DNA of 64,000 bases from Candidatus Omnitrophota bacterium. Its GTDB lineage: Bacteria > Omnitrophota > Gorgyraeia > Gorgyraeales > Gorgyraeaceae. Below, in pieces: positions 34,901-42,023 of this stretch. Below the pieces are notes generated by a model. It had not been told where the DNA came from. It worked only from the letters and a program-made list of their open reading frames with translations, and did no database searches. Made by a program: the position numbers and the translations under genes. Location: positions 5,330-69,329 of the forward strand of contig JAHJHC010000032.1 of NCBI GenBank assembly GCA_018824145.1, in the 5' to 3' direction. How positions within the stretch are numbered: the first letter of the stretch is position 1; the number at the start of each line of letters is the position of its first letter.

Positions 34901-37900
34901 GTCGCATGGGCAACGCTCTCAACCCTTATACGTATATCATTGTCAGGAGGAGTAACTTGCTTGGTAACAGGGCAATCTATCTTCGGCCATGAAAACGAAT
35001 CTACATTTGATATACCACTCGCTATAGTACCACCCCAACCCCCAGTTCCTCCCTCTGTATCATATTTTACATTCACAGTCTGTACACCGTTTGTTCCTGT
35101 GCCTCCGCCTTCTGTCTCCCATGTAATATTATAGTTAGTAGTTCCTACATAAACAGTTCCAGTAGATGGAGAAAGATTGACAAACCTTGCCTTGATAGTA
35201 AGTTTATCTGCAACAGATATAGATTCTATGCGATCATCGTCTTTTGCCCTGATTTTTATCCTTATCTGTGAATTCAAACCATTGTCTCCAACCTTAAAAA
35301 CAGTATCATCATCTGGTATAGTCCATGTATATGACTCATCAGTTGCAGTAACTACACCTGGAGTATCAACAATAGCATTAGTGTAGTTATCAGAACCATT
35401 ATTCTTTGAATAATAAATATAAATGTCTCCTATGCCTGAACCTTCTGCATCCCAGATAATAGCATTCTGGGCCCCGCATTCCCAATCAGGGCTCACAGCA
35501 GGAGAGCCGGCATTCTGCGGAGGTGTTGTAAGCTCCAGACTCCCAAGGATAGCAAAGTTATTTAGTGATGCGTCACTTACATCATCTTCATCTCCTACCT
35601 TAACAGAATACACCTTTATCTTACATTGCTGGCTTACAATGCCCGGAAGATTCTCAATGGTCCAAGTGTAATAAGACTCATCCTCATATGTAGTATCATA
35701 ATTATTTTCAGAAGGGATGGAGCCGCCTAGTAAGGCATCATAGTCAGTGCCGCCATTTGTCGAGTATGCTATCATTACATCTCCAAAATCAAAATCAACA
35801 GGCTTCCACCTTATATCCATTGTCTCGCCTATTGTCTTCACTATACCTGTAGCATCAGGATAGCTCAGCTTGATCTGGGGTTTTACAGCAAAATCAGCTG
35901 TCCCTGTATTTGATTCACCAGCAGTCCCTGTAACCAGATCTTCATCTCCCTGTAAGGCCACCATTATCATATCGTTTGCCCCTTCATGCACAGGAAGGAC
36001 TGTCCAGTTGAATGTTCCAGCTGTGATGTCAGTTGTATCAGGCGTGGTCAGTTCGTAAGTATAGTTGCTTCCGCTGTTCTTTGAGAGCATTATCTTGGCC
36101 CATCCGGTTATAGATCCGTTCACATCCCAGGTTATAGCAGTTGTCTCACTTGTGTCAGAGATCTTAACAAAATTTGTAGTCGGAGCTGTAACTACTATAG
36201 ATCCTTTTATCTTGAATGCAGGGCTTTCATGATATATATTCGTCAGACTGTAGTCCTGGACCTTTACATAGACTTCATTATCCAGGTCATTAGGGATAGT
36301 CCATGCATATTTTAAATCAGTTGAAGGCTTATCTACTCCAGGGGCTATTTCAGCGTAGCCACCAGCCCCTTTCTTATAAAACACCTTTACCTTATCATCA
36401 GTTGTGCTCCCCTTTAAAGTCCACTCTATATCCCTCTGGGTTCCATATCTCCACACATCATTAAGTTCCGGCTTTGTAATTGTAACTACCTGCTCTATTG
36501 TGAAGACAGCAGCTGATTCATCATCAATATCACTAGGATATGCAGCACTCTCTATTCTGATCATGGCTTGTGTAGATTCCGGAGCTGGAACAGGATCCCA
36601 TGTCCAAAAACACTGGTTCGAATATGTAGTATTATAATTATTCGCCACATCGATCCCGACTCCGCCGTTTAACTTTTCCCATGTACCTCCAGTATTCCTT
36701 GAAATGGATATATATACCTTATTATTACCAACAGGCCCTACATCACCTTCGTATTCCCATATAATGTCATGGGAAGTACCCACCTGCCATGAAGGCGCGC
36801 CACCATCATGCTGAATAAGGGTCACGGTAGCGTCTATGTCAAAAACAAGGTCAGATTCATCCTCTACTCCTGTAAGCTCAGCCTGTGAACTCTCTATCTT
36901 GACCATGGCTTCATCACTTATAGGCAACTCCGGAGTCCACTGGTAATAGGATTGGTTCGTATAGGTAGTATTGTAATTTAGATTCGCTGCTACTTCATCT
37001 ATATACTCCCATGCAACACCGCTATTCCTTGATACGTAGAGTTTCACATTGGTCGTGGACAGGTTGCTTGTATTTGACCATACAATATGTCCGTTATCAC
37101 CTGTGGTACTGCCTGTAATCCATCTCTCATCTCCACCCATAGGCTCTACAAGTGTTATTGAACCTTGTTCTATAGTGATGCTGGCGCTTTCGCCGTATAC
37201 AGTCGAATCCGCTATGTCAGACTGGACTACCTTTATCTTGGCGTAATCATCCTGAGCAGGCTGGACAAGACTAAAAGGTATATCCCAATCATATGAACTC
37301 CCAGTGCCGGATGCCCCTGCAGGCTCATCCAATTTAATAGGCGTGTTATATGATAAGCCGTCATTATTTGAATAAAATATATTTACCGTGCCATCAGTAA
37401 TGCCTGTACCGAAATGTCCATGTTTCATCCAGGAAATAGTCTTATCCTGCTCACCAAGATACCAGGTTGTAGGAGAAGTAGGAGTTACACTGGTTATACG
37501 GCCTCTTAATGTAAACGGCTGAGATATAGTTTGTACAGTTGTATTCGGGGAATCAGGGTCATAATTTGAAGTTATCTTAATGACACAATTCGTGCCGATT
37601 AAGTTCTCTCCGTCTATTGCAGCAGGTATTGTCCAGGGAAAAGTGCCGCTTCCGCCGTCGCCTGCTCCGGTACCGACACTGGTAGTAGTGCTTAACGGCG
37701 TACTAAGGTAAGTCTGTCCTCCGTCAATAGAAAGCTTTATTGTAACAGTTGTCGTACTTAAAGTATCCAGGTGCCCCAAATAGTCCCACGTAATATCCTG
37801 CTGTTCCCCTATCCTCCAGGTATTTGGCGGCTGGTCAATAGTCAAAACTCCTTTTATAATAAAATCCTCATTGGATATATCAATGTTTCTTGCTGACATA

Positions 37901-39993
37901 TCCGTATCTGTAATCTTGACCCTAAGCTGTTCGCCTATAAGATTCGTTCCACTGATATCTGCAGGTATATCCCATCCATAGAACCCTGTAGGGCAATGTG
38001 TATCTTCTTCAACTGGCGATGCTGGCGTCTCGTAAATAGCTGTTCCTATATATCCAGAGCCGCCGTTTACAGAAAGCTCTATCTTTACTTTATGCTGATT
38101 ACTGTATCCTGTGCCTCCGCTATTGGTAGAATCAGCATAGACCCATACTATATCCTTAAGCTGTCCTACGGACCAGACCTCTTTCTCTTCTGTATAATCA
38201 GGCGGCAGTCCGCCATTGGGTACCTTTACTGTAAGAGGCGCAAGCTCCACTACATAATTACTTATGTTTATAGCCACGTAAGTATCGACTCGGTTTAAGG
38301 TAAGGGTAGTAGCAGGCGGCCCTCCTGATAGATCAGCCCTTATCCATTCAGAACCAGTAGTAGCACTCCTCGTAGTAGAGCCTCCTGAAACGCTGTAGGT
38401 TATAAATGACCTTGTATCATCTATTGTATAATCCAGGACCTGATTCTGTGCATTGGCAGCTGCAGCAATGCTCTGAGAATACTGCTGGATCAGAGTAGAT
38501 TCATCAGTAAATTCTACGACAGACCATGCGATTTCCATATTTCCTGCTGTGCCTACGCGGTCAAATGTAAGCGTAGTAGGATTAGTTATTACGCCCCGCG
38601 TAAAAGTATCATCCCAGTATGTAGCAGTAATTGCATTAAGATAACTAAACACAAGAAAGCTTTTATCTACATCCACTTCCTCTGGTATCTCTGCTGTAGT
38701 AGATGAGACTGCGACAGCCATCGTAGCATAGGAGGAATGATGCTGGACTTTGGCATCTGTCTCAAATGAGACAACCTGCCACATGATATTACAGGCCCGG
38801 GCGCCTATGCCTGTACCACGCTTGAAATACAGCGTCTTTGAAACCCCTCCTCCTGCAACCGGGGGTATATATTCATACACTTCAAAGTAAATATCCCTAT
38901 CGCTCTCAGCAGTGCCGTTCCAATAACATATGCCGTCAGGATACGGATTTCCAGTCATCCTCCTGATATTTACGTCAGAGGCAGTATTCCCTCCAGGCGT
39001 ATCGCGCAGGTCAATATAATAAGTCTGATTATCATTAAGCGTTACCGGCGTAGAGAATTCTATATCAAACCATCCCCAGCTACCAGGAAGGGTAGTCGCA
39101 TCTATATTGGTGACACTGGAATCAGTAACTATCGTACCGTTCTCTGTCTCTCTGATGGAAAAATCCACATACTGCGGAGCAGGGCTGATAGCATTTCTAT
39201 CTATGTAAAGACTGACCTTATCCAGCTGATAAGTAGCACCAGTACTGTCATACTTAAACTGTTGTGCAAGTCTATAGCTGGAAAGCGTGGTGCCCACATA
39301 ACTGACTGCACCACTATTACAGTATGAAATAGGCCCGGGTGCTGCCTCGCCCTCTATGAATTCACCCAGCGGGAATACATCAGGTACATTAGTTACAATA
39401 TAAGCATTGGGGCTTAATAGTAAAAAGCTCTTATTCATATCTACTTGGAACGGCAGAATAGTGTATCTATCCTGTTTATCTTCGGCAAGGATTGTTACGC
39501 CTCTCTGGACAAAGACCCCGTCTGTAAACTCCACAATGCGCCAGTTTATATTCCTGGTAGAATACTCTTCCTGAGCGCCCAGCTCTAACCGGTAGGCATC
39601 ATAAAAGTCCACATATATAAGATTACCTGCCTGATAACCTGCTGTTGAATCATTACTATCAAGTGTTGCAAAGGCAACGCATTTAGTTACATCACTAACA
39701 GGTGTATGGGCATCTGGAGAGCCTGTATAGCCGTCTGTGCCGTCATCTATCCAGACAACACGCACAAAGCTCGTACCCGCACTTCCTGTAGGAGCAAGTG
39801 TAGCTGTGCCTTTATAGACCTTCTTCACCTGCACTGCTTCTGCCTCTGGCACTAAATAAACCATAGAGGAAAGTAGATACACCCCTCCCGTAAGCAATAT
39901 TGCCCCAATGAAGACGCCTAGATTTTTCAGTAATCTTTTCTGCAGATTCAGATTTTTTTCTTTCATCTTCAGAAAATTATTATACGTCTTCAT
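7984..39993 (-). CDS. Giant surface or adhesin-like protein of 10,669 aa. It has an N-terminal signal-anchor, a unique roughly 600-aa N-terminal region, more than 100 tandem Ig-like beta-sandwich repeats of about 90-100 aa, and a non-Ig C-terminal region.
   Basis: It is a single uninterrupted ORF of 32,010 bp. The N-terminus KNLGVFIGAILLTGGVYLLSSMVYLV is hydrophobic. A recurring domain signature (...W.VG....I.W...G....V.I.YS.DGG.....I.......Y.WT.P......IKI.D..) runs throughout. A GGAGG SD lies upstream of the ATG. Confidence 0.9.
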   Translation of the reverse strand: MKTYNNFLKMKEKNLNLQKRLLKNLGVFIGAILLTGGVYLLSSMVYLVPEAEAVQVKKVYKGTATLAPTGSAGTSFVRVVWIDDGTDGYTGSPDAHTPVSDVTKCVAFATLDSNDSTAGYQAGNLIYVDFYDAYRLELGAQEEYSTRNINWRIVEFTDGVFVQRGVTILAEDKQDRYTILPFQVDMNKSFLLLSPNAYIVTNVPDVFPLGEFIEGEAAPGPISYCNSGAVSYVGTTLSSYRLAQQFKYDSTGATYQLDKVSLYIDRNAISPAPQYVDFSIRETENGTIVTDSSVTNIDATTLPGSWGWFDIEFSTPVTLNDNQTYYIDLRDTPGGNTASDVNIRRMTGNPYPDGICYWNGTAESDRDIYFEVYEYIPPVAGGGVSKTLYFKRGTGIGARACNIMWQVVSFETDAKVQHHSSYATMAVAVSSTTAEIPEEVDVDKSFLVFSYLNAITATYWDDTFTRGVITNPTTLTFDRVGTAGNMEIAWSVVEFTDESTLIQQYSQSIAAAANAQNQVLDYTIDDTRSFITYSVSGGSTTRSATTGSEWIRADLSGGPPATTLTLNRVDTYVAINISNYVVELAPLTVKVPNGGLPPDYTEEKEVWSVGQLKDIVWVYADSTNSGGTGYSNQHKVKIELSVNGGSGYIGTAIYETPASPVEEDTHCPTGFYGWDIPADISGTNLIGEQLRVKITDTDMSARNIDISNEDFIIKGVLTIDQPPNTWRIGEQQDITWDYLGHLDTLSTTTVTIKLSIDGGQTYLSTPLSTTTSVGTGAGDGGSGTFPWTIPAAIDGENLIGTNCVIKITSNYDPDSPNTTVQTISQPFTLRGRITSVTPTSPTTWYLGEQDKTISWMKHGHFGTGITDGTVNIFYSNNDGLSYNTPIKLDEPAGASGTGSSYDWDIPFSLVQPAQDDYAKIKVVQSDIADSTVYGESASITIEQGSITLVEPMGGDERWITGSTTGDNGHIVWSNTSNLSTTNVKLYVSRNSGVAWEYIDEVAANLNYNTTYTNQSYYQWTPELPISDEAMVKIESSQAELTGVEDESDLVFDIDATVTLIQHDGGAPSWQVGTSHDIIWEYEGDVGPVGNNKVYISISRNTGGTWEKLNGGVGIDVANNYNTTYSNQCFWTWDPVPAPESTQAMIRIESAAYPSDIDDESAAVFTIEQVVTITKPELNDVWRYGTQRDIEWTLKGSTTDDKVKVFYKKGAGGYAEIAPGVDKPSTDLKYAWTIPNDLDNEVYVKVQDYSLTNIYHESPAFKIKGSIVVTAPTTNFVKISDTSETTAITWDVNGSITGWAKIMLSKNSGSNYTYELTTPDTTDITAGTFNWTVLPVHEGANDMIMVALQGDEDLVTGTAGESNTGTADFAVKPQIKLSYPDATGIVKTIGETMDIRWKPVDFDFGDVMIAYSTNGGTDYDALLGGSIPSENNYDTTYEDESYYTWTIENLPGIVSQQCKIKVYSVKVGDEDDVSDASLNNFAILGSLELTTPPQNAGSPAVSPDWECGAQNAIIWDAEGSGIGDIYIYYSKNNGSDNYTNAIVDTPGVVTATDESYTWTIPDDDTVFKVGDNGLNSQIRIKIRAKDDDRIESISVADKLTIKARFVNLSPSTGTVYVGTTNYNITWETEGGGTGTNGVQTVNVKYDTEGGTGGWGGTIASGISNVDSFSWPKIDCPVTKQVTPPDNDIRIRVESVAHATDVYKESSELTVLGKLEITSPDASNINADALIAEETFRIEWVVNDNVGKTGGYDLGDLKLYYAPDGVTWEDGLGNVGTPITTLPASGNSYYDWTVPANKCTTSGNEIKIEDADETSVKHATDIDFHIKGKLYAISGGEKNHWMEAPNGGEVYYVGGADIDVQWRYKGDLGTCEIYYDDDSGTLYDIPVATVAHDKNEDGSNICHHSMQVPATAGITYRVKIYDNNDGTYVFANSQSNFVVKGAVYLGSPGMDDQNIELWFVDGFSQPPATGAPTITWTVTGGIAEVDILLDTDSGNNDYTDFTIASQIGGGSSPYSWSIPAENDRQTITTDKAGVRVRDHNDTSVSDESLYDFEIKPRIFIGTPPGIGDLWIIEQSKAITWTTTGLIGWVRLYSTPDGTNWYEQPTWASTASGSLWTIPETNTVAHNNAKIKLVRVEEDDEQVKYEDTDVVSISPTFSIGGKIVIDSPLTNQGYNVLSTGDIEWNVKGDVGNVKIMYNTNSGASYPDGSWVAFSGATEIAPDYCTNVPGTPYTVNIPESTAPEVKIRVGEMNHEFDIFGPIMAGSPTHAFKGNILFDQPPGDPSTKNETITIGSGVHTINWSNVGSFTNLKAFYKNIGDTQWTQIGSDLAGGVTSTDYTAIDSDITNPAMDNKVLFRVEDALDGQDVYAETAVGEANIVVGQLEMMQPVLDQEMTVGDSVTVKWKKYGDTGNLKFELWDGSDWLDNAGGSGLPDSRTPGASGETGVTLSWTVPDKIYNLCKIRTTAINYDGLGAPYELQDESDTFIIKGDLTSITTPGTWYVGEDHNVTWEATGIMSTVKIELYVEGTGYTTIDNAYDGHDNNPAGLKSGTNTYLWHAADTKQQQRSEQCKIRVISNQNNDIDVETTFFTLKPKITVTTPSQAWIAESNSNLIEWSAIAAPTTNINIILEDGNSGAGYPKTLASNIDKTGIPPASLSYTSTVVLPATLTNSANIRIEDAQTSPVDYTGIVYGESNPFDVIGEIVISKPDDTCLDWTVGDTTRLIEWNVKGTIGDAKIYADYNGDGTMDETLTTIACSSGYNSWTWEDPGDPTDEGIGDYVGNNVKIKIDDVDAYTVTTDTSDPFPILGGFEFTKPAAVGEVHHIDDDTDPTGYLIKWKTSGTNITAVKLEYFHNVNGWTPIEPSLANNSWGDTENSYTWDADSTGPLPVNLAATNVKFRITAVTPNQPDTELESATIVLCGDIEVTAPTQGVTWVADGTTANTVSWNVFGPVGNVKVFYTRDVSESYVELTEQSGEAGDAAANKGAYQWTIPTDPAQGDFITRVDAAHGSLIKVSDAVAPFDTYATDESLDFMVKGQLRLIAPTVGALSAGLNCASSNTITWERDGRIYAVNVKYSTNNGVDNYSNVIAQDRTFATINSTQQSTASQWQVPETPVTDEYILLIEDANYEKSGTDGTFVPSDAFRIKGALTLTAPTATATWRITEEKTISWEVDHGQLDYVKIIASPSGNFSGDEYDVVTGLNPFNVEAFNTGLLPSKVGSGNYPWTIPISTPLVDTIKFKVVHDNASFTDIKSNASAAMDMRANILVQTPTVDYSPFVDWKVGDTGKIVKFSAYGSALGTVYVFLYDGDDGVEHQLDSGGVATAGNGNPQDFTLPSSVPDVKSNACTVRVRDTVIRVDADVEGESGAFSAYPVLSNVAITPTDPPDVANVWITGATNQEVTWTDTSAQVDTVDIYYSSTGSGGFNFGTDTPIMDDWSTAQGSCATITVPSTRTLQGRIAVRDADSNFDDDVNAMMQTDFRVAGKIYIDEPDDTHNWQVGATDKLIKWHYDGDVSAVDIYIDYDGYGTGTSEVLLKANVDVDDGVAGYNPASAGGAWDPAGVPNEVGNNVQIRIQDANDNYDDATTTTSEAFKITASFTFAYPVGSEEFHVTSLTPSFVIKWNTIGDSVSAVKLEYWNKDSGTSGEWLLIKNGVANNKHGSGVANENTYTWDTVGAHDNLLPLNLAAEDIKFRITSSTPLQPSTAKVSNEFVICGNIAVTAPTQGLTLVADGTTANTVSWNVYGPVTNVKIAYSRDSKSNYVELVSSMSAEAGDAAANKGAYQWTIPTDPSLGDYITRVDASESSYIKVEDASTFGQYVSHESLDFIVKGQLRIIAPSVATLADGFVGRETTPVTWERDGRINAVNVKYATDGVTFSNSLVSDRIFATTAATQQSLASDWIIPETPLTPDYKILIEDTNYEKSGTSGTYVLSNPFTVKGALTLTAPSSTTTWNITDTNKTISWNVAHGEISKVKIIASPSGNFTGDEYVVDTNLNPFSVSAFSAAATPVGSGSYQWTIPVTAVLSDTTKFKVRDMNETDYADVISAASVAMYIRGKITVKTPTVDYLPSDDWNVGDTDKQVKFTTYGDTMSTVYVYLYDGVAEHQIDGGSGIATNGNGSEETFGGSGEFTVPDVKSHNCTIRVRNAESSPTAEGESGGTFSTYPVISNVAITPTDPPNTAGVWIAEAADQTVTWTETSAELTTVDIYYSSTGTGGFNFETDTPIVDNWSTAQGSCATITVPTERTLQGRIAVRDADSNFDDYINAMIPANFKVCGEIFIDEPDDTHNWQVGATDKLIKWHYDGDISAVDIYIDYDGYGTGDPEVLLKANVDATQGSAGYNPASAGGAWDPNGVPNEIGNNVQIRLQDADSNYESVTTTTSEAFKITASFTFAYPVGGETFHVASTTPSIQIRWNTIGDNVSAVKLEYWNKDSGASGEWLLIKSGIANNKHGSGVANENTYTWDRVGAHDNLLPLNLAAEDIKFRITSSTPDQPSTAKLSNEFVICGNIAITAPTQGLIWTADGATANTISWDVFGPVTNVKILYSRDSGVGYVELVSTMAAEDDDGDGDADEDDTIPNKGSYDWTIPTNPATGDYITRVDAGDDSYITVEDTSTFGTYVTDESLDFIVKGQLRIITPSAATFANGFTGRASTQITWERDGRINAVNVKYATDGVTFSNVITADRTFATTAATQQSLASAWIVPETPLSISYNILVEDTNYEKSGADGTFVESGNFRVKGQLTLTAPSSTDTWNITDTNKTISWDVNHGEISKVEIIASPSGNFTGDEYVVDTNLNPFNVSAFNGVATPVGSGSYSWTVPVTAVLSDTTKFKVRDDNETDFPTVITAASPAILIRGKIAVKTPTVDYLPSTDWHPGDSDKQVKFTTYGDTMGTVYIYLYDGAAEHDLAVGGISTNGDGNEETYNVPQVPDVKSINCTIRVRNAESSPTVSGESQGTFSVYPTITGVTITPSTGDEGSNPPIWRAGLGSQTVTWTENDIATPGLISEVQILYTATGGTPDTALNTGGAVTTHEICNTITAPAALSFDSAIVRVRDADTDFQDKIYADSSAFRMLGRIQYGASPSLDADWFIGDDSRQVIWSAFGTEITQLDVYADYDDGAGFNYITTIAANSSPWTFEDPEGSGTVGDNVTESAQIRLQDNDTDRGPLTQYNSVTFHIAGKFETIAVTAVDPEDTVVVSNRAAIVTWAKTGTLISDVLMQYTTNGTNWYNIVNNLEADTTTLVSNNESYSWTSPATVMSQLCKIKITDPDNSAAQGISAANFTIAPKCKVLQPDSNDSWEANDTETIEWQKWGTFPNVNIYYRPDDQTAWDLLNDAETVPSHGGDGLNGTWGWYIDEEVVLSPTAEIKVVDKDRETYTLAILSDQFTTRGSVEMLWPDDGTEGYNVYEAGIAKNIKFKRYGNIEGVKLYLWDGDSWDLMTDLGTNGVIDFVGAETEHITSWSPPEFIGTSYKIKCQDKNNADIDSESPPFKIKGKVKITDPDLQQPTWYITDQDKRIRWDVQHGNIAFVKIEISPSGAFGGDEYLIIGQTQADNEIAFDKDTSPVAKGFYDWDIQRDTPLSTIARIRVKDYNETDYDDVASTSGADVTIRGKISVQTPGVDWNVKDTGRLITWNAYGAISTVWIDFYDGNQWLLSINGAGGTACGDGDNKTWSVANWDVHGKIPDMKSNACQIRIKNATSNPTISETSGTFYVYPTITNVDIVPSVGDEAKDHTIWRAKLANQTVTWTENDISDDTLVDTVDIVYSKAGTFADAVTIKEDVLTHESCATITAPTNLSFQSAKIRVQDNDTGFENKVYGDSTEVFSVLGRVVYGASPSLGANWGIGAVDKLINWTAYGDQLTQVDIYIDYGSSYIYQKTEDTVPESPDSWTYDDIDTGVDGVGDYAAENVTVRIEDVDTDRKAYTQYLSPAFNIIGSFEFAYPLGGETFHIDDDTSPSPLQIQWKTTGSDVSKVKLEYYHNVNGWTLIDGNVDNNYGDGVQVNTYDWGPASSTPLPVNYAATDIKFRITSVVPNHPATELESEEFVICGTLDVTAPEQGEIWVADGATANTISWDVYGPVTNAKISYSRDSGVGYTVIVPTQLAEAGDAQANKGAYQWTIPVNPASGDFITRVDAADVSYIKVEDASATYGTYVNDESLDFIVKGQLTIIAPTAGTLASGFVGRDSTQITWQRDGRINAVNVKYATDGVTFSNVIAADRTFATTAATQQSLASAWIVPETPLTPNYKILIEDTNYEKSGTDGTYILSNTFTVKGALSITAPSTTTTWRITEQKTISWDVDHGQINKVKIIASPSGNFTGDEYTVDTNLDPFNVSAFSAAATPVGSGSYPWTIPVTADLTDTTKFKVRDANETDFADVISTASVVMYIRGKITVLTPSVDYAPFGVDWKVGEADKQVQFRSYGDTMSTVYIYLYDGTTEYDLAVGGTSTVGNGNIETYNVPSVPDVKSHNCTIRIRDAAVSPNAEGESGTFSAYPTISSVAITPTNPPNIAGVWVSDSENQTVTWTETSSKLTTVDIYYSATGTGGFNFETDTPIVDNWSTAQGSCNTITVATNKTTQGRIAVRDADSNFDDYINAMTATNFRVAGKIYIDEPDSAHNWPVGATDKLIKWHYDGNLTAVDIYIDYDGYGTGDPEVLLKANVDVDDGVAGYNPASAGGVWDPDGVPNEVGNNVQVRIQDGDSAYEDATTTTSDAFKITSSFTFAYPTGGEPFHVDSLTPSFVIKWNTIGDSVSAVKLEYWNKDSGASGEWLLIKDGVANNKHGSGVANENTYTWDTTGAHDNPIPLNLAAEDIKFRITASTPLQPSTAKESNEFVICGNVEVTAPSQGDIWTADGATANTVSWDVYGPVTNVKISYSRDTGGGWTELVASMAAEDDDGDGDADGDDTIPNQGSYDWTIPTNPATGDYITRVDAGDDSLIKIEDTSTFGTYVVDESLDFIVKGQLTIITPTAGTLASGFVGRDSTQITWQRDGRINAVSVKYATDGVTFSNVIVADRTFSTTAALQQSLASAWIIPETPLIPNYKILIEDTNYEKSGTDGTFVLSDAFKVRGALTLTAPATTTTWRITEQKAISWDVNHGEINKVKIIASPSGNFTGDEYTVDTNLDPFNVSAFNGVATPVGSGTYQWTIPVTADLTDTTKFKVRDANETDYSSVISAASVAMYIRGKITVLTPTVDYAPFDIDWNVGDTNRQVKWRAYGDTMSTVYIYLYDGTTEHNLAVGGTATVGDGNIETYNVPQIPDVKSNNCTIRIRDAQTSPKAEGESAGTFSAYPTISGVTITPSAGDEGSNPPIWRAGLENQTVTWTEDIISDDNLISTVQIYYSSTGTGGLPGTLLLDNVNTEETCSAITAPLQLSYNQAVIRVRDKDTGFEDKVYGDSSPFRVLGRIVYGLSPAQDANWFVGETNKTVNWTAYGNQLTSVDILIDYDDGEGYQYLKTESTVPGSPDTWTFDDPDAGIDGVGPHITLTTQIMIQDVDTDRQTYTKYESPTFHIAGNFDINDALLPTTLSAGDPYTIKWENYDLQGQIPIAKLEFFDGTTWHDIDYKTNPTGHTGLVTNSESCSWSVPTDVKSVACQFKISDPDNAAAVDLSATFEIRAVITVTSPDSNDKWVIGTSGNLIEWNVTGLIGTVGSPNVFEIVYSNDDGVTYPPYGGYVINSSYTATPPVSYPWTIPTDEDILTKDQAMIKVADASLAAACGESDSFMMKSGITVTEPETTDVLTVGTAFTIEWTTLGTADMGDVIIQFSKTGSAPWTNIATVDFEYGSSSYNLWAPAIDSITDDTKAAIVRITDVDNTEVTDDSEAFEIEGDIVWESPIESGLMWSVNTSYDIEWTPTGTFGPIKIEYSTNAFADELETNYFTSVANSAHGVRRVYPFTVPNDIDDQVKIRISHEYDSDVKAVVPYNIKFVGSLDVTAPDSQTPKPIWLKGQSKNITWTAIGDVTNVDIQYKTSAGGNYIDIILDHDGGGAYGDGSNTYQWTVEDENSENCYIKVSDTLHHTGAATDVYSVSTYPFSIRPVITVSQPVEDSNLVVLSDGHTISWSLNGSEQVSYVKLYYSVDGGSFEDLDVSGNVDATSDYTWDNIPDAISDDVVVRVVDNVNSSVYGDSPSFDIIGSITVVKPDSNSNWEVGTTDKNITWSYTGSIGLVNIYYDYGQGYDLVDASNMPVAASGQSYTWSSIPDHVSESVKIKITDEDTETAVDKVEDESVPFKIRGGFVLDAIPAYVISASGRTITWTPNGADILIAKLEFSSNNGGAWRNIDYVSAGNPGTGFVSNSGAYSWTVPSDVASTTCLVKISDPDNADAKHTSNSFEVRAKITLDSPTTSDAWVVNDNHDIEWTVTGVVNNVNIEYSVAGGDFGWVLGWAAGEDPQVDPVGQASNISASDGSFTWKIPDQMSDEINVRIADTTKPNDVKDESGNFTITGKIVLGAPVGGETWYVLDQKTISWTKTGNIPLVDVLWSEPTINGGAYQYITDGEDLTENSTTWSVPSVISDSVKVRIVNSDATKPTIAAVSDFFYVRGKLLITSPQLDQVWDSGAQKNITWTTTGPIPEVTLDYDYDGVGTGVDWITIDTDITASDQSYPWTVPPTISSNVVVRVTDELYNEVTNTSPVFKIANIVVTRPQAGDPWICQEQEDINFTVSGAITNVKIEFSSNGLSGPWTEIEPSLAVSQDANTYTWNSVTTVASTHTIIRIKDTNQKSFVTGFSPEFIVRGGFTFLHPISTDRWLANSAKTIEWTTKGTILNVYIRYRLDDQDNFDFVNDGSTISNNNQYPWTVPNAISYEAQIKISDAQDSSATTESAPFTVHGQLTVTQPNDSSSKLKAGQFDQDSKIIWTMIGPISRVDIYLSTTGDVEENYEYMTYVEGATEYSWSVPTDKGRSTNCFIRLKDPSDPQELVKDESDTAFWIIDNITVLTPDGTVPWIAGNTHAVTWTSEDIATSVDIKYKKDAPYDTWPGTVISGITNDATNSYDWPIPNSIDLTHTYRIRVSDANATYSAYCFDTSVDFTIQGTITVTEPNGGTAPDFLDMEKWGCDLTHYVKWTSQGNITNVDIAYYLGSTPPSNPNDWVDIITNYSNSGAKEYPWDIPITLTAENVLIRVKDHNTAFPDVKDVTDNPFKIMARVVVEEPETGYVWEAGTQGTIKWTRYGPSSFDKVKIEYAYNNPDFTDPGDPQDPTDIKVITSSEQFVGSVGNFGWNIPPEAVGFESMRIRISKHDDPDVYDISDAFTIRVNFTSISPNGGQKWILGHTETISWTKTGITYSDTARTQEAVKLTVYLQANPTIKYVIGVQPSSGTAGIYDWTIPTTLDYRLITDNMGLIMRVEDPNYDDPTDTDAYKDSASPFKIMPDIIVTSPVSDEQWFVNDTNRYITWTITDTTVPTLGNVTMYYSLTGGSSWTAISGSSTPATDEEWLWVPKVPDIISSQLKIKVESNDDSDCYGVAPHTVNAQTGFPNRNSFTTAPYAKISAKFTIDPNITGQDLVVGDSYQITWTNTGTVTDVKITYSLNGDTGPFDPIDEDNDPQTADTGIVANGASGGSFDWTVPDDIARDTVKLRVESSLDSDAVDTSGLFRIMGEITINAPVGGPSWEIGQDKDIKWNWVGTIPEVEITYSTNGLTGPFNPVDEDNDPGTANTGLVTNGAGAGGPGAEHTFTWTVPDEASANVIIRVADARDGTSPVGDQTDIIGESQSFEIIGYIITHAPVADEKWAVASSHDITWEWGGTMPQVKITISQNGVGGPFVPIDEDNDPGTANTGIVTNGVYDPQNPGATHSFTWIVEDYISPTCVIKVADARTLLESIVNDDSGEFKIQGDFTLTSPAIALKEGGDPAEVLDYECRWVTNEVREVTWTTFGTIPKVDIYYSKDNFADIDPADGVPDNQILIKNDLGQQALDWDNTGTFDWKIANDRSDTVKIRIYDHNDPDVFIEGPYVDPGFPAGVSTTMKIDYYTITWDIRDLITNQHINGLTVSEVSTSGWPGWDATGVSSPKNHDVTADNWTATFTHKDYGPIEVTYFTGVDEEGKVWGDRKIFRTMETLVVHIWRAYSEFSYDVETDRLDITSWLERDGSLVPGALVVDVKIYDGFEQIKRKTILVQEEDTPQAGDPEKHYFYEDIPSTVDIWLGTSWDPDLEQEVERFQFENIADCATYKTGEIQTPIDFAGFFPQTWTPTSHTSGGTAYDTLQAGKVYTVKTYIVLGTGGNFTTPVSFTVTIPTAMASMEDSLENMDDKIDYVLDKPMSVISGEIQASMDQQIILLDQKTDEVVDIVSAQTETIETKMNEQSALIDSKTDEMIAMVDMTLTSFETRTQSAIEDLQEGADMAVEAGETLMETALKYSWGASVSPNPVLTNETVTINCQGQPGLAPVIDIYDVNSNLVYSSIMKESSDGVYVYEFEADDSFEAGKAYSFIIQESETGGLVTGSGMVGKYEWSVAVFPDPALTGDTITLQCIGLPNLLPQVYIYAWDGDAIEEGLLMTQDTPGMYIAKVEADGNFPAGKAYTYMVTEQQTGTVLVGSGMVESMSITTVAGLAAAAPEASRAAKKALEAIKALEAVLISGDSINIALTLKNLKSSVDALPEIMSKEGPTAVITNAINEVSDRIKALAGEEGYDMGTILEEALTESPTVKEIRNKTDAINGTVDVVLQTFESKIGGIEDPIVLMQ
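17400..32200 (-). repeat. Nested tandem super-repeat inside the giant gene, with a period of about 2.33 kb (about 775 aa, 8 Ig-like domains) and five full copies.
   Basis: Conserved landmarks (KLEY[WFY]...GEWLLIK or HNVNGWT coding, read on the antisense strand) recur at about 31.4, 29.06, 26.69, 22.06 and 19.7 kb. Near-identical antisense pseudo-ORFs (..EKVTPSVAYFTLTAL..) sit at 18971, 21347, 25943 and 28373. VFSLATPEPCLLLA-type pseudo-ORFs sit at about 19.65, 26.6 and 28.9 kb. Confidence 0.85.
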
Positions 39994-40008: not shown

Positions 40009-40515
40009 TTAATCGCTTATTAAGACCTCGAGCTGATTCTCAGATTCTTCTTCGGAGTCAGGCTCAGGTCTTTTTATTCTTTTTGCAGCCCTCACAAAAC
40101 TAATACTTTTTGCGAGCCATTCTTCAGTAATCCTGTTTCCTCTGTTTGGCTTAGTTACCTCATGGTAAGTCACCTTCACAGCATCGCCGACTTTTATATC
40201 GTTTAAACCCTGTTTATGCACCACCTTTGTATCTTCATCAATAAGAAAAGAATAATCAGTATTTGTCTCGGCATCACCTACGGCAATAACCGTGGGATTA
40301 AATCTGGGTGTAAAATAAATAACCTCTCCTACCAACTCTTTTTCTTTAATCATCTCTTTCACAGGAGACTGTTCGCCTTCTCCTTGCTCTTCGTCGTCTT
40401 CCTGAGCAACTCCTGCCCCTATGCCTCCTAAGAGAAAAACCGCTATTAAAAATATGAGACATACAAAAATCTTTTTCATCCCGCTATCCTCCTTACTTTT
40501 AAAAATAATATTCAT
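40009..40515 (-). CDS. Small secreted protein of unknown function, located immediately upstream of and co-oriented with the giant gene.
   Basis: The 168-aa protein has a signal peptide (KKIFVCLIFLIAVFLLGGIGAGVA), an acidic linker, a beta-rich domain and an acidic C-terminus. There is a 15-nt gap to the giant-gene ATG. Confidence 0.6.
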   Translation of the reverse strand: MNIIFKSKEDSGMKKIFVCLIFLIAVFLLGGIGAGVAQEDDEEQGEGEQSPVKEMIKEKELVGEVIYFTPRFNPTVIAVGDAETNTDYSFLIDEDTKVVHKQGLNDIKVGDAVKVTYHEVTKPNRGNRITEEWLAKSISFVRAAKRIKRPEPDSEEESENQLEVLISD

Positions 40516-41780
40516 TTCTTCATCCTATCGCCTTTAGATACAAATGTAAAATCCCTGACTGCACCGTCAGCTGAACGTTTTGTCAGCACGCCTTTTAAAA
40601 CCTCACCATCCCATTTTCCGTGCCAGCTGGCTGATTCACCCAGCTCGTTTGTCTGCATCGTCTCCCACGTAATAGTATCGTCTTTAAGCTTACGTTTCGA
40701 ATAATTTGCATCACTAAAACCTTCCCTGCTTAAATTCAGTGAAGTCAAACGATTGTATTTAAAAATGATTGTATCTTGAGCATTAAAAGCTATGCCCGGA
40801 CCTCCGACTTGCCTCAAATCAATCCTCCAGGTATACCCTTCTATTTCCATCTTCGCCTTTTCAAGTTCTTTTAAGGCATCTTCAGTCAGCCTGATCTTCC
40901 ACACGTAGTCATCTATCTCTTTATTTGCCTCAATGGCTTTATCTCTCTCACTTCTAAGCACATCTAAAGTCTTGTTATAAAGTGCCATGGTTTTATTATA
41001 CTCACTCTTCATCACAGTATGCTGTCTGTAAAAATATAAAATGACAAAGACTAAAACTAAAAATGTTATTCCACTCGAGATCATGTAAATCAGAAATGAC
41101 TTCTTAGGGACAGGTGCCTTCTTTTGTTCCTGTGCTGCACTTTCTATTCTTTTTTTAATCTCTTCTGTAAATTCCCTCGGACCCAAAATTCTTCCTTTGT
41201 GTAATTTTTTTTTAAACTCATCTATCTCTATTTGGGTAACAAATTCTGTGTATCTCTCGAATGTCTTTTCCCTGCCTTTTAAGAGTGTGAATACTTCTTC
41301 AATCTCACTACCTAACTCAGGAAAATGCCTTTTTTCCGGGTTTAAAAATTGAGGATAACTGGAAAAAGGATACGTCTTGATGTAATTTGTAAAGTCTACT
41401 CTTTTGGGATTCAGATGGATATGTCTTAAGAGCGGTAAAAGAGAACTCTCTTTCTCTGCCAGCTTAGCCTTAAACCTTTCCTGGAAAAGGTGCCCTTTTT
41501 TATTATACTTTCCGTTAAATAATTTTGTATATATGGAGTTTATATCATGCATAATACTTGAAATACCAATCTGGTTCTGTAGCTCAATAAGCATATGAAG
41601 ATGGCTAGGTAGTAAAATATAGCCGAATAGCTTAAAACTATATTGCTCTTTATATCTATTTATTAATGACACATATTCTCTATAGTCATCAGGCTGTATA
41701 AATATATTTTGATTGTGACCACCTCTTGAAGTCACGTAGTACAAAACATTTTCAACATATACTCTCGGAAGCCTTGCCAT
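40512..41780 (-). CDS. Membrane-anchored fusion protein with an N-terminal IS200/COG1943 (RAYT-like) HUH domain, a TM helix, a coiled coil and a C-terminal WETMQ domain.
   Basis: The N-terminus MARLPR...YYVTSRGG...LLPSHLHMLIE...GHLFQERF...LRHIHLNP matches the COG1943 Y1-transposase fold with HUH = HLH. A TM helix ISSGITFLVLVFVILYFY follows. The C-terminus ...ITWETMQTNELGESASWHGKWDGEVLKGVLTKRSADGAVRDFTFVS is shared with two other ORFs. The gene overlaps the next gene by 4 nt (ATGA). Confidence 0.65.
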   Translation of the reverse strand: MARLPRVYVENVLYYVTSRGGHNQNIFIQPDDYREYVSLINRYKEQYSFKLFGYILLPSHLHMLIELQNQIGISSIMHDINSIYTKLFNGKYNKKGHLFQERFKAKLAEKESSLLPLLRHIHLNPKRVDFTNYIKTYPFSSYPQFLNPEKRHFPELGSEIEEVFTLLKGREKTFERYTEFVTQIEIDEFKKKLHKGRILGPREFTEEIKKRIESAAQEQKKAPVPKKSFLIYMISSGITFLVLVFVILYFYRQHTVMKSEYNKTMALYNKTLDVLRSERDKAIEANKEIDDYVWKIRLTEDALKELEKAKMEIEGYTWRIDLRQVGGPGIAFNAQDTIIFKYNRLTSLNLSREGFSDANYSKRKLKDDTITWETMQTNELGESASWHGKWDGEVLKGVLTKRSADGAVRDFTFVSKGDRMKK

Positions 41781-41797
41781 CTTACCTTTTCTCCTTC

Positions 41798-41850
41798 AAA
41801 ATGCCTGGCACCTATCTAAAAGTGCCTGGCACTTTCTATCTAAAAACAAA
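41798..41850 (-). promoter_or_regulatory. Candidate operator or promoter region of the HUH-fusion, secreted-protein and giant-gene operon. It is a tandem 21-bp direct repeat, and each copy carries the palindrome TGCCTGGCA.
   Basis: tgcctggcacctatctaaaa (41802-) and tgcctggcactttctatctaaaaa (41823-) are centred about 25 and 45 bp upstream of the ATG at 41780. An AAGGAG SD precedes the ATG. Confidence 0.4.
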
Positions 41851-41873
41851 AAATCCAGGCGCATTGCCTGGAT
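41842..41873 (-). terminator. Intrinsic terminator separating the TMTC cluster and mini-gene from the giant-gene operon.
   Basis: The stem ATCCAGGC/GCCTGGAT (41853-41860 and 41866-41873) has the loop GCATT. On the minus strand it is followed by UUUUUGUUUUU. Confidence 0.6.
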
Positions 41874-41880
41874 TTCTCCT

Positions 41881-41979
41881 TTAAGTTTCGGCAATCTGCC
41901 TATCCGCCTGAAGCGGACGCACGATTTTGCGTCTCCAGATTACTCTGGATTTGCCTTTTTCGACCTCAAATCTCTTCAA
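41881..41979 (-). CDS. Possible 32-aa basic small protein ((M)KRFEVEKGKSRVIWRRKIVRPLQADRQIAET). It starts at TTG and carries its own promoter and terminator.
   Basis: A perfect AGGAGG SD sits at 41989-41984 with a 4-nt spacer to the TTG at 41979. A TAA stop at 41883-41881 is followed immediately by the terminator. The ORF track omits it because it is under 60 aa and starts at a non-ATG codon. Confidence 0.25.
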   Translation of the reverse strand: MKRFEVEKGKSRVIWRRKIVRPLQADRQIAET

Positions 41980-41994: not shown

Positions 41995-42023
41995 AGTATA
42001 CTCTATAATACATAAAAAATCAA
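41995..42023 (-). promoter_or_regulatory. Near-consensus sigma70-type promoter (TTGATT-N17-TATACT) driving the mini-gene.
   Basis: On the minus strand the -35 element ttgatt (complement of 42018-42023), a 17-nt spacer, and the -10 element tatact (complement of 41995-42000) are followed about 7 nt later by the SD. Confidence 0.45.

Follow-up and report, generated by a model that had tools for sequence, protein, structure and literature searches.

The locus described here raises the question of what a domain of the transposase type does in a membrane protein encoded at the head of the operon of a giant surface protein. The giant genes of the Omnitrophota, with products that range from 10,000 to more than 100,000 amino acids, are a recent puzzle, and we know of nothing established about their regulation or export. 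In one study of giant genes, the flanking "transposases" were taken as evidence of mobile DNA; some of them may correspond to the gene characterized here. The DNA analysed (hereafter the window) is a 64-kb stretch from a Candidatus Omnitrophota bacterium, for which the original prediction proposed that a HUH domain had been domesticated within a membrane protein encoded in the giant-gene operon. The features of the window are given in Table 1; synteny was compared in a set of 80 species-level genomes or loci, almost all of them labelled Omnitrophota.

Table 1. Location of the features identified in the 64-kb window.
Feature	Position (nt)	Strand	Basis and remarks
Giant protein gene	7984..39993	-	10,669 aa; N-terminal hydrophobic anchor, repeated Ig-like modules (Kre9_KNH Ig-like match)
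Small secreted partner	40009..40479	-	156 aa from SD-supported ATG; 168 aa from longest-ORF start 40515
HUH-TM gene	40512..41780	-	ORF, 422 aa
HUH core of HUH-TM	41400-41780	-	aa 1-127; H60/H62 codons 41595-41603; H120 codon 41421-41423
Helical linker of HUH-TM	41106-41399	-	aa 128-225
TM helix of HUH-TM	41028-41096	-	aa 229-251; Kyte-Doolittle
Coiled coil of HUH-TM	40845-41027	-	aa 252-312
Beta-barrel of HUH-TM	40515-40844	-	aa 313-422
Shine-Dalgarno-like AAGGAG	41791..41796	-	10 nt 5' of HUH-TM ATG; direct sequence reading
Leader element AAAGTGCCWGGCAC, two copies 21 nt apart	41822-41835 and 41802-41812	-	within 41802..41835
Intrinsic-terminator-like hairpin and T-run (expression platform)	41848..41878	-	13-pair stem
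c-di-GMP-I clan aptamer, operon 5' leader	41886..41964	-	Rfam RF03167, 60.5 bits vs gathering 59, E 8e-12
Sigma-70-like promoter candidate TTGATT-17-TATACT	41995..42023	-	~30 nt upstream of aptamer; consensus scan 9/12
Barrel paralogue, 244 aa	57534..58268	-	signal peptide, barrel, acidic/lysine-rich tail; directly after PPIase gene
Secretin cluster	58261..63882	-	Pfam
SurA_N + cyclophilin PPIase	58261-59757	-	Pfam
175-aa protein, N-terminal hydrophobic segment	59762-60289	-	secretin cluster
Barrel paralogue, 143 aa	60305..60736	-	signal peptide and barrel only; tblastn E 4e-12
TPR/coiled-coil protein	60744-61985	-	secretin cluster
Secretin	62020-63882	-	Pfam

The first gene of the operon, which carries the annotation "transposase" and which we call HUH-TM together with its family, encodes a protein that lacks an N-terminal signal peptide and reaches the gathering score of Pfam PF01797, with the HUH/Y1 core fold present. 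It has a single hydrophobic segment (approx. residues 229–251, Kyte-Doolittle 2.6), and in the AF2 model (mean pLDDT 87.9) one long helix spans residues 226–284, followed by a second helix (residues 290–310) and a beta domain (residues 316–421); the hydrophobicity and the AF2 helix thus confirm the TM helix that had been predicted after the HUH domain. The charges around this helix follow the positive-inside bias, with a mean K+R of 4.2 on the N-side versus 2.7 on the C-side. The C-terminal barrel is assigned to the periplasm because it is also found in proteins with a signal peptide that are encoded upstream, in the secretin/PPIase cluster. HUH-TM is therefore a bitopic inner-membrane protein, in which the HUH domain and its linker are cytoplasmic and are followed by the TM helix, the coiled coil and a periplasmic 8-stranded beta-barrel. 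Profile searches of the linker (residues 128–226) against PDB and Pfam revealed no similarity to DnaA or HTH proteins, and a DnaA_C/HTH identity for this region is unsupported.

The HUH motif of the window protein is H60-L-H62. When this protein was compared by phmmer with 4ER8, the segment DYIYINP (Y115) aligned with RHIHLNP; in class 2 the motif is Y---NP and the metal ligand is N119 (Quentin et al. 2018). According to these alignments, the position of the catalytic Tyr is occupied by H120, and N124 and P125 are kept. None of the alignments of the window protein that were examined has a Tyr at the catalytic position, and the predicted Tyr-to-His substitution is borne out, with H120 opposite Y115. 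With a His at this place, this protein cannot work as a transposase. The signature of subclass 2.1 consists of NH[YF]H, FQ and Y[IV]HLNP plus the SS motif (Table 1 in PMC6006769), and the window protein has SHLH, GHLFQERF, HIHLNP and FSS, i.e., the complete signature save the Tyr, in the absence of a tree with reference sequences. The consensus of the family around the catalytic site is RYIHLNP; judging from the motif, the invariant second His (H122) is simply part of the subclass-2.1 signature. The NCBIfam equivalog NF047646 (REP-associated tyrosine transposase) matched with 68.9 bits, under its cut-off of 80. Judged from its motifs, the window gene appears to encode a domesticated member of the TnpA-Y1/RAYT subclass 2.1 HUH fold.

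The loss of the catalytic residues is not general. The HUH motif is present in 109–111 of 121 aligned members and the HxH/Y/N set is complete in 41 of 78 species proteins, whereas position 120 can be Y, H, F, Q, C, D, I or R, and in the clade of the window protein it is H in 45 proteins, Y in 14 and Q in 5. Judged from these alignments, catalytic inactivity is lineage-specific and not family-wide, since the wider family mostly has the Tyr and often the full set. A complete set in about a third to half of the family means that a catalytic role is not excluded there. It could accordingly be proposed that in the Tyr lineages HUH-TM is still an active endonuclease, i.e., a membrane-tethered nickase acting on leader palindromes or on repeats of the giant gene, for instance in phase or repeat variation, and that the H120 protein of the window is a recently inactivated or regulatory-only derivative. 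In favour of this proposal, which we consider very doubtful, the Tyr is kept in 109 of 143 representatives and the whole set in 44 of them. Against it, the constraint on the HUH core is equal in H120 and Y120 members, and catalytic residues have been lost in many independent combinations, including RE-Q-S, RS-F, QH-Y-L and SN-Y-R, while the gene and its synteny persist. The HUH core shows a mean identity of 68%, versus 43–47% in the other domains; that it is the best conserved part despite its catalytic decay implies that it works without catalysis in many lineages.

The possibility of a mobile element was excluded by the single copy, the fixed synteny and the absence of tnpB, of end hairpins and of the Tyr. 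The HUH domain occurs only once in the 64-kb window according to a tblastn search, no TnpB-type partner was found among the neighbour genes (TPR membrane proteins, the secreted protein and the giant gene), and a hairpin pair flanking both ends of the gene was not found, in agreement with the lack of terminal inverted repeats and partner genes that had been noted in the original prediction. Only 33 nt separate the HUH-TM stop codon from the next gene. As for the REP-like flanking hairpins that were proposed as a check, palindromic repeats do occur upstream; nevertheless, they belong to the riboswitch leader described below and are not IS ends. The proposed search of genomes for the same fusion recovered homologues in which the full-length architecture is kept at 45–58% identity, with essentially one contig (1–2) per cluster. 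Taken together, the conserved architecture, the synteny and the catalytic decay under constraint strongly support the view that the HUH domain has been domesticated as part of a membrane protein of the giant-gene operon.

The second gene of this operon codes for a small protein in which a signal peptide and an acidic linker accompany a beta-rich domain (approx. 75 residues) that is conserved. It had been predicted to be translationally coupled to HUH-TM through an ATGA overlap. This overlap exists only if the start of the longest ORF is used, but there is a strong SD, AAGGAGGA, in front of another ATG (40479), with which the 156-residue NCBI protein record also begins; the two genes are tightly packed and probably do not overlap. 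The giant gene starts 16 nt after the stop of the small gene. A giant ORF was found downstream of the HUH-TM homologue in all of the first 8 loci examined, and, among the 80 species loci, nearly all those for which 3 kb or more of downstream sequence is available have an open frame after the HUH-TM stop. These frames start 0.4–0.9 kb past the stop and run off the locus, reaching more than 3,180 codons, as compared with 500–800 codons that are typical of the longest ORFs in the upstream flanks. A small signal-peptide ORF usually lies between both genes, and homology to the one in the window is detectable for 40 of the 62 small ORFs that are syntenic. Of 58 syntenic giants, 52 carry a hydrophobic segment at the N-terminus and 51 have repeat modules in common with the giant of the window; single-sequence phmmer did not detect a conserved N-terminal 'handle' on the giants, given that only 3 of 58 matched. 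The order of the operon, i.e., riboswitch and terminator, AAAGTGCCWGGCAC repeats, HUH-TM, small secreted protein and giant surface protein, is conserved across Omnitrophota.

The distribution of the barrel bears on a different interpretation of the protein, namely that HUH-TM is a structural or assembly part of the export machine, similar to GspL/GspC or PilN/PilO, in which the degenerate HUH domain would be a protein–protein adaptor that does not bind nucleic acids, and contact with the secretin/PPIase system, or with the N-terminus of the giant, would be made by docking of the TM helix, the coiled coil and the barrel. We regard it as a rather unlikely alternative. In its favour, proteins of the secretin/PPIase cluster that have a signal peptide contain the barrel too: barrels behind cleavable signal peptides occur in two window proteins and in 40 of the 80 loci, the paralogue of 244 residues matches residues 306–420 of HUH-TM (tblastn E 2.6e-13), and its equivalent is located directly before the riboswitch leader in 28 loci (ending at most 700 nt upstream of the HUH ATG). 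The barrel of HUH-TM also co-varies with the small signal-peptide ORF, both being present in 61 loci and absent in 4, with only 4 discordant cases. There is also one HUH-TM per giant gene, even in a MAG that carries two modules (L057 and L060), and the loss of catalytic residues indicates that the chemistry is dispensable. On the other hand, the HUH core is the most conserved region and retains GHLFQERF, H122 and SS, which in relatives line the DNA-binding or active-site face. Moreover, the HUH-TM gene follows the giant gene and the leader and not the secretin cluster. The secretin gene set, which has been described as a T2SS-like locus conserved upstream of giant genes (doi 10.1101/2023.11.21.568195), is directly upstream of HUH-TM in five loci (L001, L003, L004, L006 and L007); in the window it is displaced 15 kb from HUH-TM and the giant gene still adjoins, and in L005 and L008 it is absent from the 10-kb flank and HUH-TM remains with the giant gene. 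A subfamily of approx. 320 residues without the barrel also keeps the HUH domain, the TM helix and the coiled coil and has the giant gene directly downstream, which argues that the cytoplasmic domain is the constant part.

The most informative context, which goes beyond the original prediction, is the c-di-GMP riboswitch and the motif found in the leader. The match to RF03167 is the only Rfam match in the 64 kb, and our own covariance model (R1) gave 92.5 bits at 41883-41969. Orthologous aptamers were found in 7 of the first 7 loci and then in 74 of 80, and in six other loci the match is to RF01051 of the same clan (CL00126), with 51–66 bits versus a gathering score of 35. In an alignment of 76 aptamers, pairing extends to 97.3% of the cells, as compared with 31–45% in slid controls, and compensatory changes are seen at 14 of 21 pairs; this alignment was fitted to the model and is therefore somewhat biased towards the structure. 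At the variant position, where the RF03167 consensus has a G (GACGC-G-AA), the window shares an A with those aptamers that were assigned to canonical RF01051. On these sequence grounds alone, the aptamer is assigned to the c-di-GMP-I riboswitches, with c-di-GMP as its predicted ligand. Each of the 68 leaders with the aptamer upstream of the gene also contains a hairpin (-8 kcal/mol or better) together with a T-run. In the window, the first hairpin of the aptamer resembles the terminator stem, which suggests a strand swap; by eye, this resemblance is not conserved in the other loci that were compared. The sigma-70-like candidate is only a pattern match, and promoter-like matches are not enriched over shuffles. 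Two studies of Omnitrophota giant genes make no mention of a riboswitch.

Degenerate enzymes that act as c-di-GMP receptors are an established principle, and LapD, LapG and LapA exemplify the inside-out control of a giant adhesin. From this perspective, the degenerate HUH pocket could bind c-di-GMP, pGpG or another small (oligo)nucleotide, and the signal would pass through the TM helix and coiled coil to the barrel and the small partner, leading to retention or release of the giant protein. The layout is analogous to that of Lap, i.e., a degenerate cytoplasmic enzyme domain, a TM helix and coiled coil, a periplasmic output domain, a small periplasmic protein and a giant adhesin-like surface protein, and the riboswitch and the PilZ genes reported near giant genes provide a c-di-GMP context. 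In contrast with Lap, no component shows sequence or domain homology, and the c-di-GMP input is here at the RNA level, as inferred from a riboswitch without binding data; a receptor of this kind seems to us highly improbable.

Beyond the terminator, the leader contains the repeated element AAAGTGCCWGGCAC. On the gene strand of the loci (1.21 Mb in total), 96 exact copies of its 10-mer were counted, versus approx. 2 expected; this enrichment is strand-specific, and 78 of the 96 copies are within 200 nt upstream of the HUH ATG, which rules out a REP-like dispersed repeat in Omnitrophota. The first copy lies 12–16 nt past the T-run in 62 of 67 leaders, and the spacings between copies are phased at approx. 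10.5 nt (Rayleigh R 0.90; for unique values R 0.82, p ~6e-4), which suggests that an oligomer recognizes one face of duplex DNA. Four loci have the riboswitch and the motif between the HUH-TM gene and the gene that follows it, an arrangement that fits a factor acting on the leader and not merely regulated by it. The last copy ends only approx. 20 nt before the HUH ATG, so a classical activator site upstream of the promoter is impossible. A sigma-54 promoter, suggested by a TGGCAC-like half, was also rejected, given that no -12 TTGC is found at the required spacing and only approx. 20 nt, SD included, remain before the ATG. In a literature search, the motif sequence appeared only in unrelated eukaryotic primers and sites.

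This motif is not exclusive to HUH-TM genes, as revealed by a metagenome scan that yielded approx. 82 double-motif sites, of which only 26 precede a riboswitch-bearing HUH-TM gene. The remaining sites form tandem arrays or long palindromes in contigs of 36–71% GC without a local HUH gene; therefore, a different and widespread factor may read the motif, and the occurrence of the motif without HUH genes counts in favour of HUH-TM as an export component. The idea of a nickase also gains from the near-palindromic repeats that adjoin the gene, as REPs adjoin RAYT genes (PMC3333891, PMC6006769), and from the REP/BIME-like arrays that the same motif makes in other organisms. Nevertheless, in 1.2 Mb of Omnitrophota loci the motif is nearly confined to the leader instead of being dispersed, and its fixed position with respect to the terminator indicates a regulatory and not a recombination role.

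From these observations we tentatively favour, as a possibility that falls somewhat short of probable, that HUH-TM is a one-component transmembrane regulator of the ToxR/ToxS type, or a tether, for its own giant gene. This is an inference made without binding data. Dimerization through the coiled coil would bring a pair of cytoplasmic HUH domains onto nucleic acid where the operon begins, and the best candidate site there would be the repeats in helical phase, the first of which lies 14 nt past the terminator of the riboswitch. Once bound, the protein could adjust the read-through into the 32-kb gene and keep the locus close to the membrane. On the periplasmic side, the barrel may report on the export machinery or dock to it, jointly with the small secreted protein and with the paralogues in the secretin/PPIase cluster that carry a barrel; c-di-GMP, through the riboswitch, would set the primary on/off level. 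Adjacency is the only evidence that ties the HUH domain to the motif of the leader. HUH domains classically target single-stranded hairpins, which, set against the duplex-type phasing of the repeats, counts against a regulator. Likewise, one HUH-TM per giant gene fits a stoichiometric partner better than a regulator that acts in trans on a shared motif.

A particular version, in which HUH-TM is a membrane tether in cis, seems quite unlikely to us. According to it, HUH-TM, as the first product of the operon transcript, would enter the membrane and then clamp the duplex repeats 14 bp past the terminator, gate the read-through and dock the 32-kb gene by the secretin machinery, so that transcription, translation and export of the giant gene could be coupled beside a dedicated secretin machinery, with the barrel and the small partner feeding back the export status. 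If true, it would be a transposase-derived 'transertion' device accounting for both the expression and the export of giant genes.

Whichever of these roles is the correct one, a three-part control module precedes the giant genes, formed by a c-di-GMP riboswitch, a leader element of fixed geometry and a membrane-anchored ex-transposase that carries a periplasmic sensor-like domain and has a partner. Two studies of giant genes do not mention this module, and it offers a concrete handle on the control of the enormous genes of the Omnitrophota. The family is also a clear natural example of a HUH/RAYT domain kept under strong selection after the loss of its nucleophile, which bears on the long-standing question of the function of domesticated RAYT-like proteins.

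ToxR/ToxS, TcpP/TcpH and CadC are one-component regulators of the bitopic membrane type that are encoded together with a small periplasmic partner. HUH-TM resembles ToxR/ToxS in having an N-terminal cytoplasmic domain of the nucleic-acid-binding type, a single TM helix and a periplasmic domain, as well as a small exported partner encoded immediately downstream in the same operon, helically phased direct repeats nearby, and a surface or virulence-type structure as the product that would be controlled. However, it has a HUH fold instead of the OmpR-type winged helix, so the likeness is only functional and architectural and does not imply membership of the family; in addition, its candidate site, for which there are no binding data, is in the transcribed leader after the riboswitch terminator and not upstream of the promoter. 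With respect to the IS200/IS605 transposases (IS608 TnpA, PDB 2VHG), these belong to the class Y---Q, whereas HUH-TM belongs to Y---NP, is single copy with conserved synteny, and lacks the catalytic Tyr, the subterminal left- and right-end hairpins and tnpB. Among the known systems that come closest is also TnpA-Y1/RAYT subclass 2.1 (Bertels group 1, with E. coli TnpA-REP, PDB 4ER8, as the relative of solved structure), from which it differs in the replaced Tyr (His here, and F, Q, C, D, I or R elsewhere) and in the frequent loss of the HUH motif or the Asn. The distal DnaA_C/HTH domain of subgroup 2.1.2 was not detected; HUH-TM has instead a TM helix, a coiled coil and a periplasmic barrel, and the word 'transmembrane' appears nowhere in the paper that classifies the TnpA-Y1 superfamily. 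In contrast to these RAYT proteins, HUH-TM has a fixed position, heading giant-gene operons behind a riboswitch. Finally, this leader shares with the c-di-GMP-I (GEMM-I) riboswitches (RF01051/RF03167) that precede genes for adhesins, pili or large surface proteins the gathering score, the covariation, the terminator and an operon for a surface protein, and it differs from other GEMM-I leaders in a phylum-wide element fixed 12–16 nt past the terminator and in a first gene that codes for a HUH-domain membrane protein.

The genomic context is the strongest argument that the HUH-TM gene, whose product joins an HUH domain to a transmembrane (TM) helix, is a conserved host gene and not a mobile element. 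A protein search retrieved more than 2,300 relatives, all the named ones from Omnitrophota or PVC; the closest ~65 are full-length, 45–58% identical and nearly all on a single contig each. In seven loci reached through individual homologues, the gene is followed by an ORF of 134–209 aa and a very large ORF, or by the very large ORF directly (from 1,499 aa to over 8,000 aa, truncated where contigs end). Scanning one genome per GTDB species added 80 loci; in nearly all those with at least 3 kb of downstream DNA, an open frame begins 0.4–0.9 kb past the HUH-TM stop and runs off the retrieved DNA, reaching over 3,180 codons. In the upstream flanks, the longest ORFs typically have 500–800 codons. 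The exceptions are L043 (1,729 codons), L048 (1,247), L078 (777) and L082 (383). These giants are mutually related, with repeat modules common to the window protein and 51 of 58, and 52 of the 58 have an N-terminal hydrophobic anchor. The mobile-element reading was rejected on this conserved synteny and because no second HUH copy was found in the 64-kb window (tblastn), no TnpB among the neighbours, and no hairpin pair bracketing the gene. The original prediction had described, from the sequence alone, a domesticated HUH gene without terminal repeats or partner genes, to be refuted by IS-type hairpins and multiple copies; neither was seen in the window, its observation is confirmed, and synteny, copy number and the conserved core support its central interpretation. 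A 2026 preprint takes 'transposases' flanking giant genes as signs of mobile DNA. In the MAG JAKPTF01, two modules (HUH-TM gene, small ORF, large ORF) lie on different contigs (L057 and L060), which suggests one HUH-TM gene per giant gene, not per genome; in L067 and L074 the HUH gene is disrupted or duplicated.

The HUH motif is H60-L-H62, as had been read from the sequence, and in a phmmer alignment with 4ER8 the stretch R-H120-I-H-L-N-P pairs with D-Y115-I-Y-I-N-P. Since class 2 has the catalytic context Y---NP, whose Asn (N119 in E. coli) is the third metal ligand (Quentin et al. 2018, PMC6006769), H120 occupies the nucleophile position; the predicted Tyr-to-His substitution is therefore borne out, and the catalytic nucleophile is absent from the window protein. 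On motifs alone, the set NHxH, FQ, Y[IV]HLNP and SS fits subclass 2.1 of the TnpA-Y1 classification, the window protein agreeing in all but the Tyr itself; the match also explains the near-invariant H122. Members of this subclass are low-copy, lack REP association and normally have a C-terminal DnaA_C-like or HTH domain (PMC6006769). No DnaA_C or HTH signal was found in the linker of the HUH-TM protein and, judged from sequence, the membrane anchor stands where subclass 2.1 has that domain; the word 'transmembrane' is absent from the classification paper (PMC6006769).

Among 121 aligned sequences, position 120 is Y in 60, H in 52, Q in 5, C in 3 and D in 1; H predominates within the clade of the window protein (45, against 14 with Y), and one sub-lineage has lost the whole catalytic set (HxH to RxE, Y to Q, N to S). 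HxH, Y and N are together intact in only 41 of 78 species-level proteins and in only 44 of 143 representatives clustered at 50% identity, where position 120 is Y, H, F, I, C or R. On the other hand, G96, H97, F99 and R102 are invariant, H122 is present in 117 of the 121, and mean pairwise identity is 68% for the HUH core versus 43–47% for the linker, coiled coil and barrel. The core is equally constrained in H120 and Y120 members (0.69 and 0.71; 0.68 between the groups). Such residue decay in the best-conserved part of the protein is the signature of a fold that many lineages keep for a role other than catalysis. The sequences that retain Tyr and those with the intact set leave room for a still-active tethered nickase in the Tyr-retaining lineages; however, the equal constraint speaks against it, and we consider it quite improbable.

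The predicted structure agrees with the TM helix, coiled coil and C-terminal domain originally placed after the HUH domain: a helical linker extends to about aa 220, followed by a long helix (aa 226–284) containing the only strongly hydrophobic segment (aa 229–251), a second helix (290–310) and an eight-stranded beta domain (aa 316–421). The HUH-TM protein has no N-terminal signal peptide, and K+R average 4.2 on the N-terminal side of the TM versus 2.7 on the other (78 proteins). More decisive than this bias are two window paralogues of the barrel, which have the WETMQ...W[RQ]G...DF/YxF beta-barrel of the HUH-TM C-terminus, a domain without a Pfam family, behind signal peptides; the barrel is therefore extracytoplasmic, and the domesticated, subclass-2.1-like HUH domain is cytoplasmic and membrane-tethered. 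In 40 of the 80 loci, one to three signal-peptide barrel ORFs lie upstream, in the secretin/PPIase cluster; in 28 loci one of them directly precedes the riboswitch leader. Both window paralogues belong to its secretin/TPR/SurA-cyclophilin cluster, the conserved T2SS-like locus upstream of giant genes (West-Roberts et al., doi 10.1101/2023.11.21.568195), and a periplasmic barrel is thus common to the HUH-TM protein and secretin-cluster proteins. With this barrel, the HUH-TM protein could be a purely structural component of the export platform, which we regard as unlikely.

The small ORF 3' of the HUH-TM gene forms its own family (40 of 62 detectable by phmmer), in which a signal peptide and a linker precede a conserved, beta-rich domain of ~75 aa, often followed by an LPLKGVK tail. 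This secreted partner co-varies with the HUH-TM barrel: 61 loci have the two together, 4 have neither and 4 are discordant, and a barrel-less ~320-aa subfamily stands directly before its giant gene. Translational coupling through an ATGA overlap had been proposed; the overlap exists only with the longest-ORF start, and the Shine-Dalgarno sequence AAGGAGGA backs instead the ATG at 40479, the start of the 156-aa small protein on record.

Between the secretin cluster and the riboswitch, the window has a ~13-kb block encoding five paralogous 617–763-aa proteins, with a polytopic N-terminal membrane half and C-terminal TPR repeats, and two B12-binding radical-SAM enzymes; next come the genes for a GT9 glycosyltransferase and an LPG_synthase_TM protein. 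Other loci have the secretin cluster immediately next to the riboswitch, so the block has the look of an inserted cassette for modifying the giant protein, possibly by glycosylation. The membrane halves of the TPR paralogues have no Pfam match at E 1e-5 and resemble GT-C/PMT-like enzymes by eye only; two of these ORFs overlap by 137 nt, and the listed TTG start of the downstream one is probably too far upstream. PilZ genes lie directly downstream of giant genes in many Omnitrophota (West-Roberts et al.); in the 270-aa ORF at this place in the window PilZ was not detected, nor any Pfam match at E 1e-5. F-type ATP synthase genes (alpha, gamma, beta) provide an ordinary housekeeping context, and a 247-aa ORF among them, with an OSCP/delta match in its C-terminal third only, may be a b-delta fusion.

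Coordinates of the features discussed (window positions unless a locus is named)
Feature	Position	Strand	Remarks
HUH-TM gene	40512-41780	-	422 aa
c-di-GMP-I clan aptamer	41886-41964	-	RF03167, 60.5 bits vs 59, E 8e-12
13-pair hairpin + T-run	41878-41848	-	directly after aptamer
Leader element copies	41822-41835, 41802-41812	-	21 nt apart
Downstream-placed aptamers	L011:11541-11631, L015:1539-1683, L025:11360-11450, L029:13542-13631
Barrel paralogue	60305-60736	-	143 aa; tblastn; typical cleavable signal peptide
Barrel paralogue	57534-58268	-	244 aa; tblastn; typical cleavable signal peptide
Metagenome motif loci	L090-L168; e.g. L103:5563-5670, L113:2944-8806, L154, L167
TPR/radical-SAM block	42104-55314	-
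Overlapping TPR ORFs	51408-53261, 53125-55314	-
GT9 and LPG_synthase_TM genes	55301-57499
Exact AGTGCCTGGCA	48009-48019	-	inside radical-SAM gene
ORF downstream of giant gene	6903-7715	-	270 aa
ATP synthase genes	1911-6377	-
Soluble HUH ORFs	L110:2647-3349, L156:465-1191	+	234-242 aa
Third extra HUH ORF	L116:840-1743		301 aa

The HUH-TM gene is the first gene of a giant-protein operon under the control of a c-di-GMP riboswitch identified from sequence, with a leader element of fixed geometry; this leader, both riboswitch and second element, was missed by the original prediction. The aptamer, in the 323-nt gap upstream of the gene, is the only Rfam match in the window. Its 'GGC variant' label (RF03167) is marginal: six of seven orthologous aptamers are assigned to the canonical RF01051, and a G of the RF03167 consensus is replaced by A in the window and in all other compared aptamers. 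A covariance model built from eight aptamers and run over the 80 species loci detected the aptamer in 74; in 68 it lies upstream of the HUH-TM start (median gap 120 nt), each time with a terminator-like hairpin in the leader. Covariation is strong, with 97.3% of the cells paired (31–45% in slid controls) and 14 of 21 pairs compensatory. In four species the HUH-TM gene comes first and the aptamer and leader motif follow it, standing before the small or the giant gene; there the HUH-TM gene escapes riboswitch control. The Omnitrophota giant-gene literature examined mentions neither the riboswitch nor the HUH-TM gene. Beside the riboswitch, the HUH-TM protein could itself be a LapD-like nucleotide receptor, which seems to us very improbable.

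Between the terminator and the ribosome-binding site, all 68 leaders have one to three copies of AAAGTGCC[A/T]GGCA(C). In 1.21 Mb, the gene strand has 96 exact copies of the 10-mer versus ~2 expected; 78 lie within 200 nt upstream of the HUH-TM ATG, most of the others come after downstream-placed riboswitches, and just one occurrence is on the minus strand only. The first copy begins 12–16 nt past the T-run in 62 of 67 leaders, and copies are 20–21, 30–32, 51–53, 63–64 or 71–72 nt apart, following a 10.5-nt period (Rayleigh R 0.90; R 0.82, p ~6e-4, counting each distinct value once). Kinship of the loci inflates these statistics; still, five separate spacing classes share the same phase, which suggests that an oligomer reads one face of duplex DNA. 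Within the clade of the window the element is longer, forming a perfect palindrome with covarying outer arms (TACTC...GAGTA in L014, AATCC...GGATT in L018), and the barrel-less subfamily has a CCACGCA variant. A sigma-54 reading was rejected, as the -12 element is missing at the right distance and there is no room before the ATG. At up to one mismatch, AGTGCCTGGCA has 6 matches in the window versus 1.3 expected, 4 of them leader copies read on both strands; its single exact occurrence in a radical-SAM gene is probably chance.

Among the proteins of the conserved module, only the HUH-TM protein has a nucleic-acid-binding fold. RAYT-type proteins recognise palindromic repeats adjoining their own genes (PMC3333891, PMC6006769), and the loci with riboswitch and motif after the HUH-TM gene are compatible with a factor acting on the leader. 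A reverse test tempers the reading of the HUH domain as that factor. Searching metagenomes for two copies of the motif yielded 110 stretches, 80 of which were examined; an HUH-TM ORF follows the motif in only 26, essentially loci that also have the aptamer. The remaining ones, on contigs of 36–71% GC with no HUH gene in the DNA retrieved, are tandem arrays or long palindromes, e.g. CGTCGCCATTGGTGCC-A-GGCACCAATGGCGACG. The core motif thus exists independently of the HUH-TM gene in many organisms, and from these sequences its reader may be a factor other than the HUH domain. On contigs without HUH-TM gene or c-di-GMP aptamer the core AAAGTGCCAGGCAC forms tandem arrays or caps long perfect palindromes; A and T are the only bases at its centre, so that it has a CCWGG core, as Dcm/EcoRII/MvaI sites do, and in high-GC contigs a second palindrome, GTGCGTCGCAC, occurs alongside. 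No literature on the leader motif was found. In two metagenome loci the riboswitch-HUH-TM unit is preceded, at a distance of a few hundred nt, by a gene for a soluble HUH protein with an intact NHVH...Y[IV]ELNP, the canonical subclass-2.1 signature; this may be a soluble ancestor or paralogue of the membrane form; a third extra HUH ORF has NHLH, but IHLNP replaces the Tyr motif and it is not intact.

Domesticated HUH/RAYT proteins are known as a kind; in the literature searched, no description was found of this domain arrangement, of its fixed position in giant-gene operons or of its control by a riboswitch. Not excluded, improbable as it appears, is a 'transertion' tether that acts in cis and also gates read-through of the terminator. 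The model that we prefer, a bitopic system dedicated to its own giant gene, is inferred, binding included, and is held tentatively, close to but short of what we would call probable. Dimerised cytoplasmic HUH domains would bind the operon head, probably at the phased repeats, with the periplasmic barrel and its partner linking this binding to the export apparatus and its state. Such a system would be of the ToxR/ToxS type.
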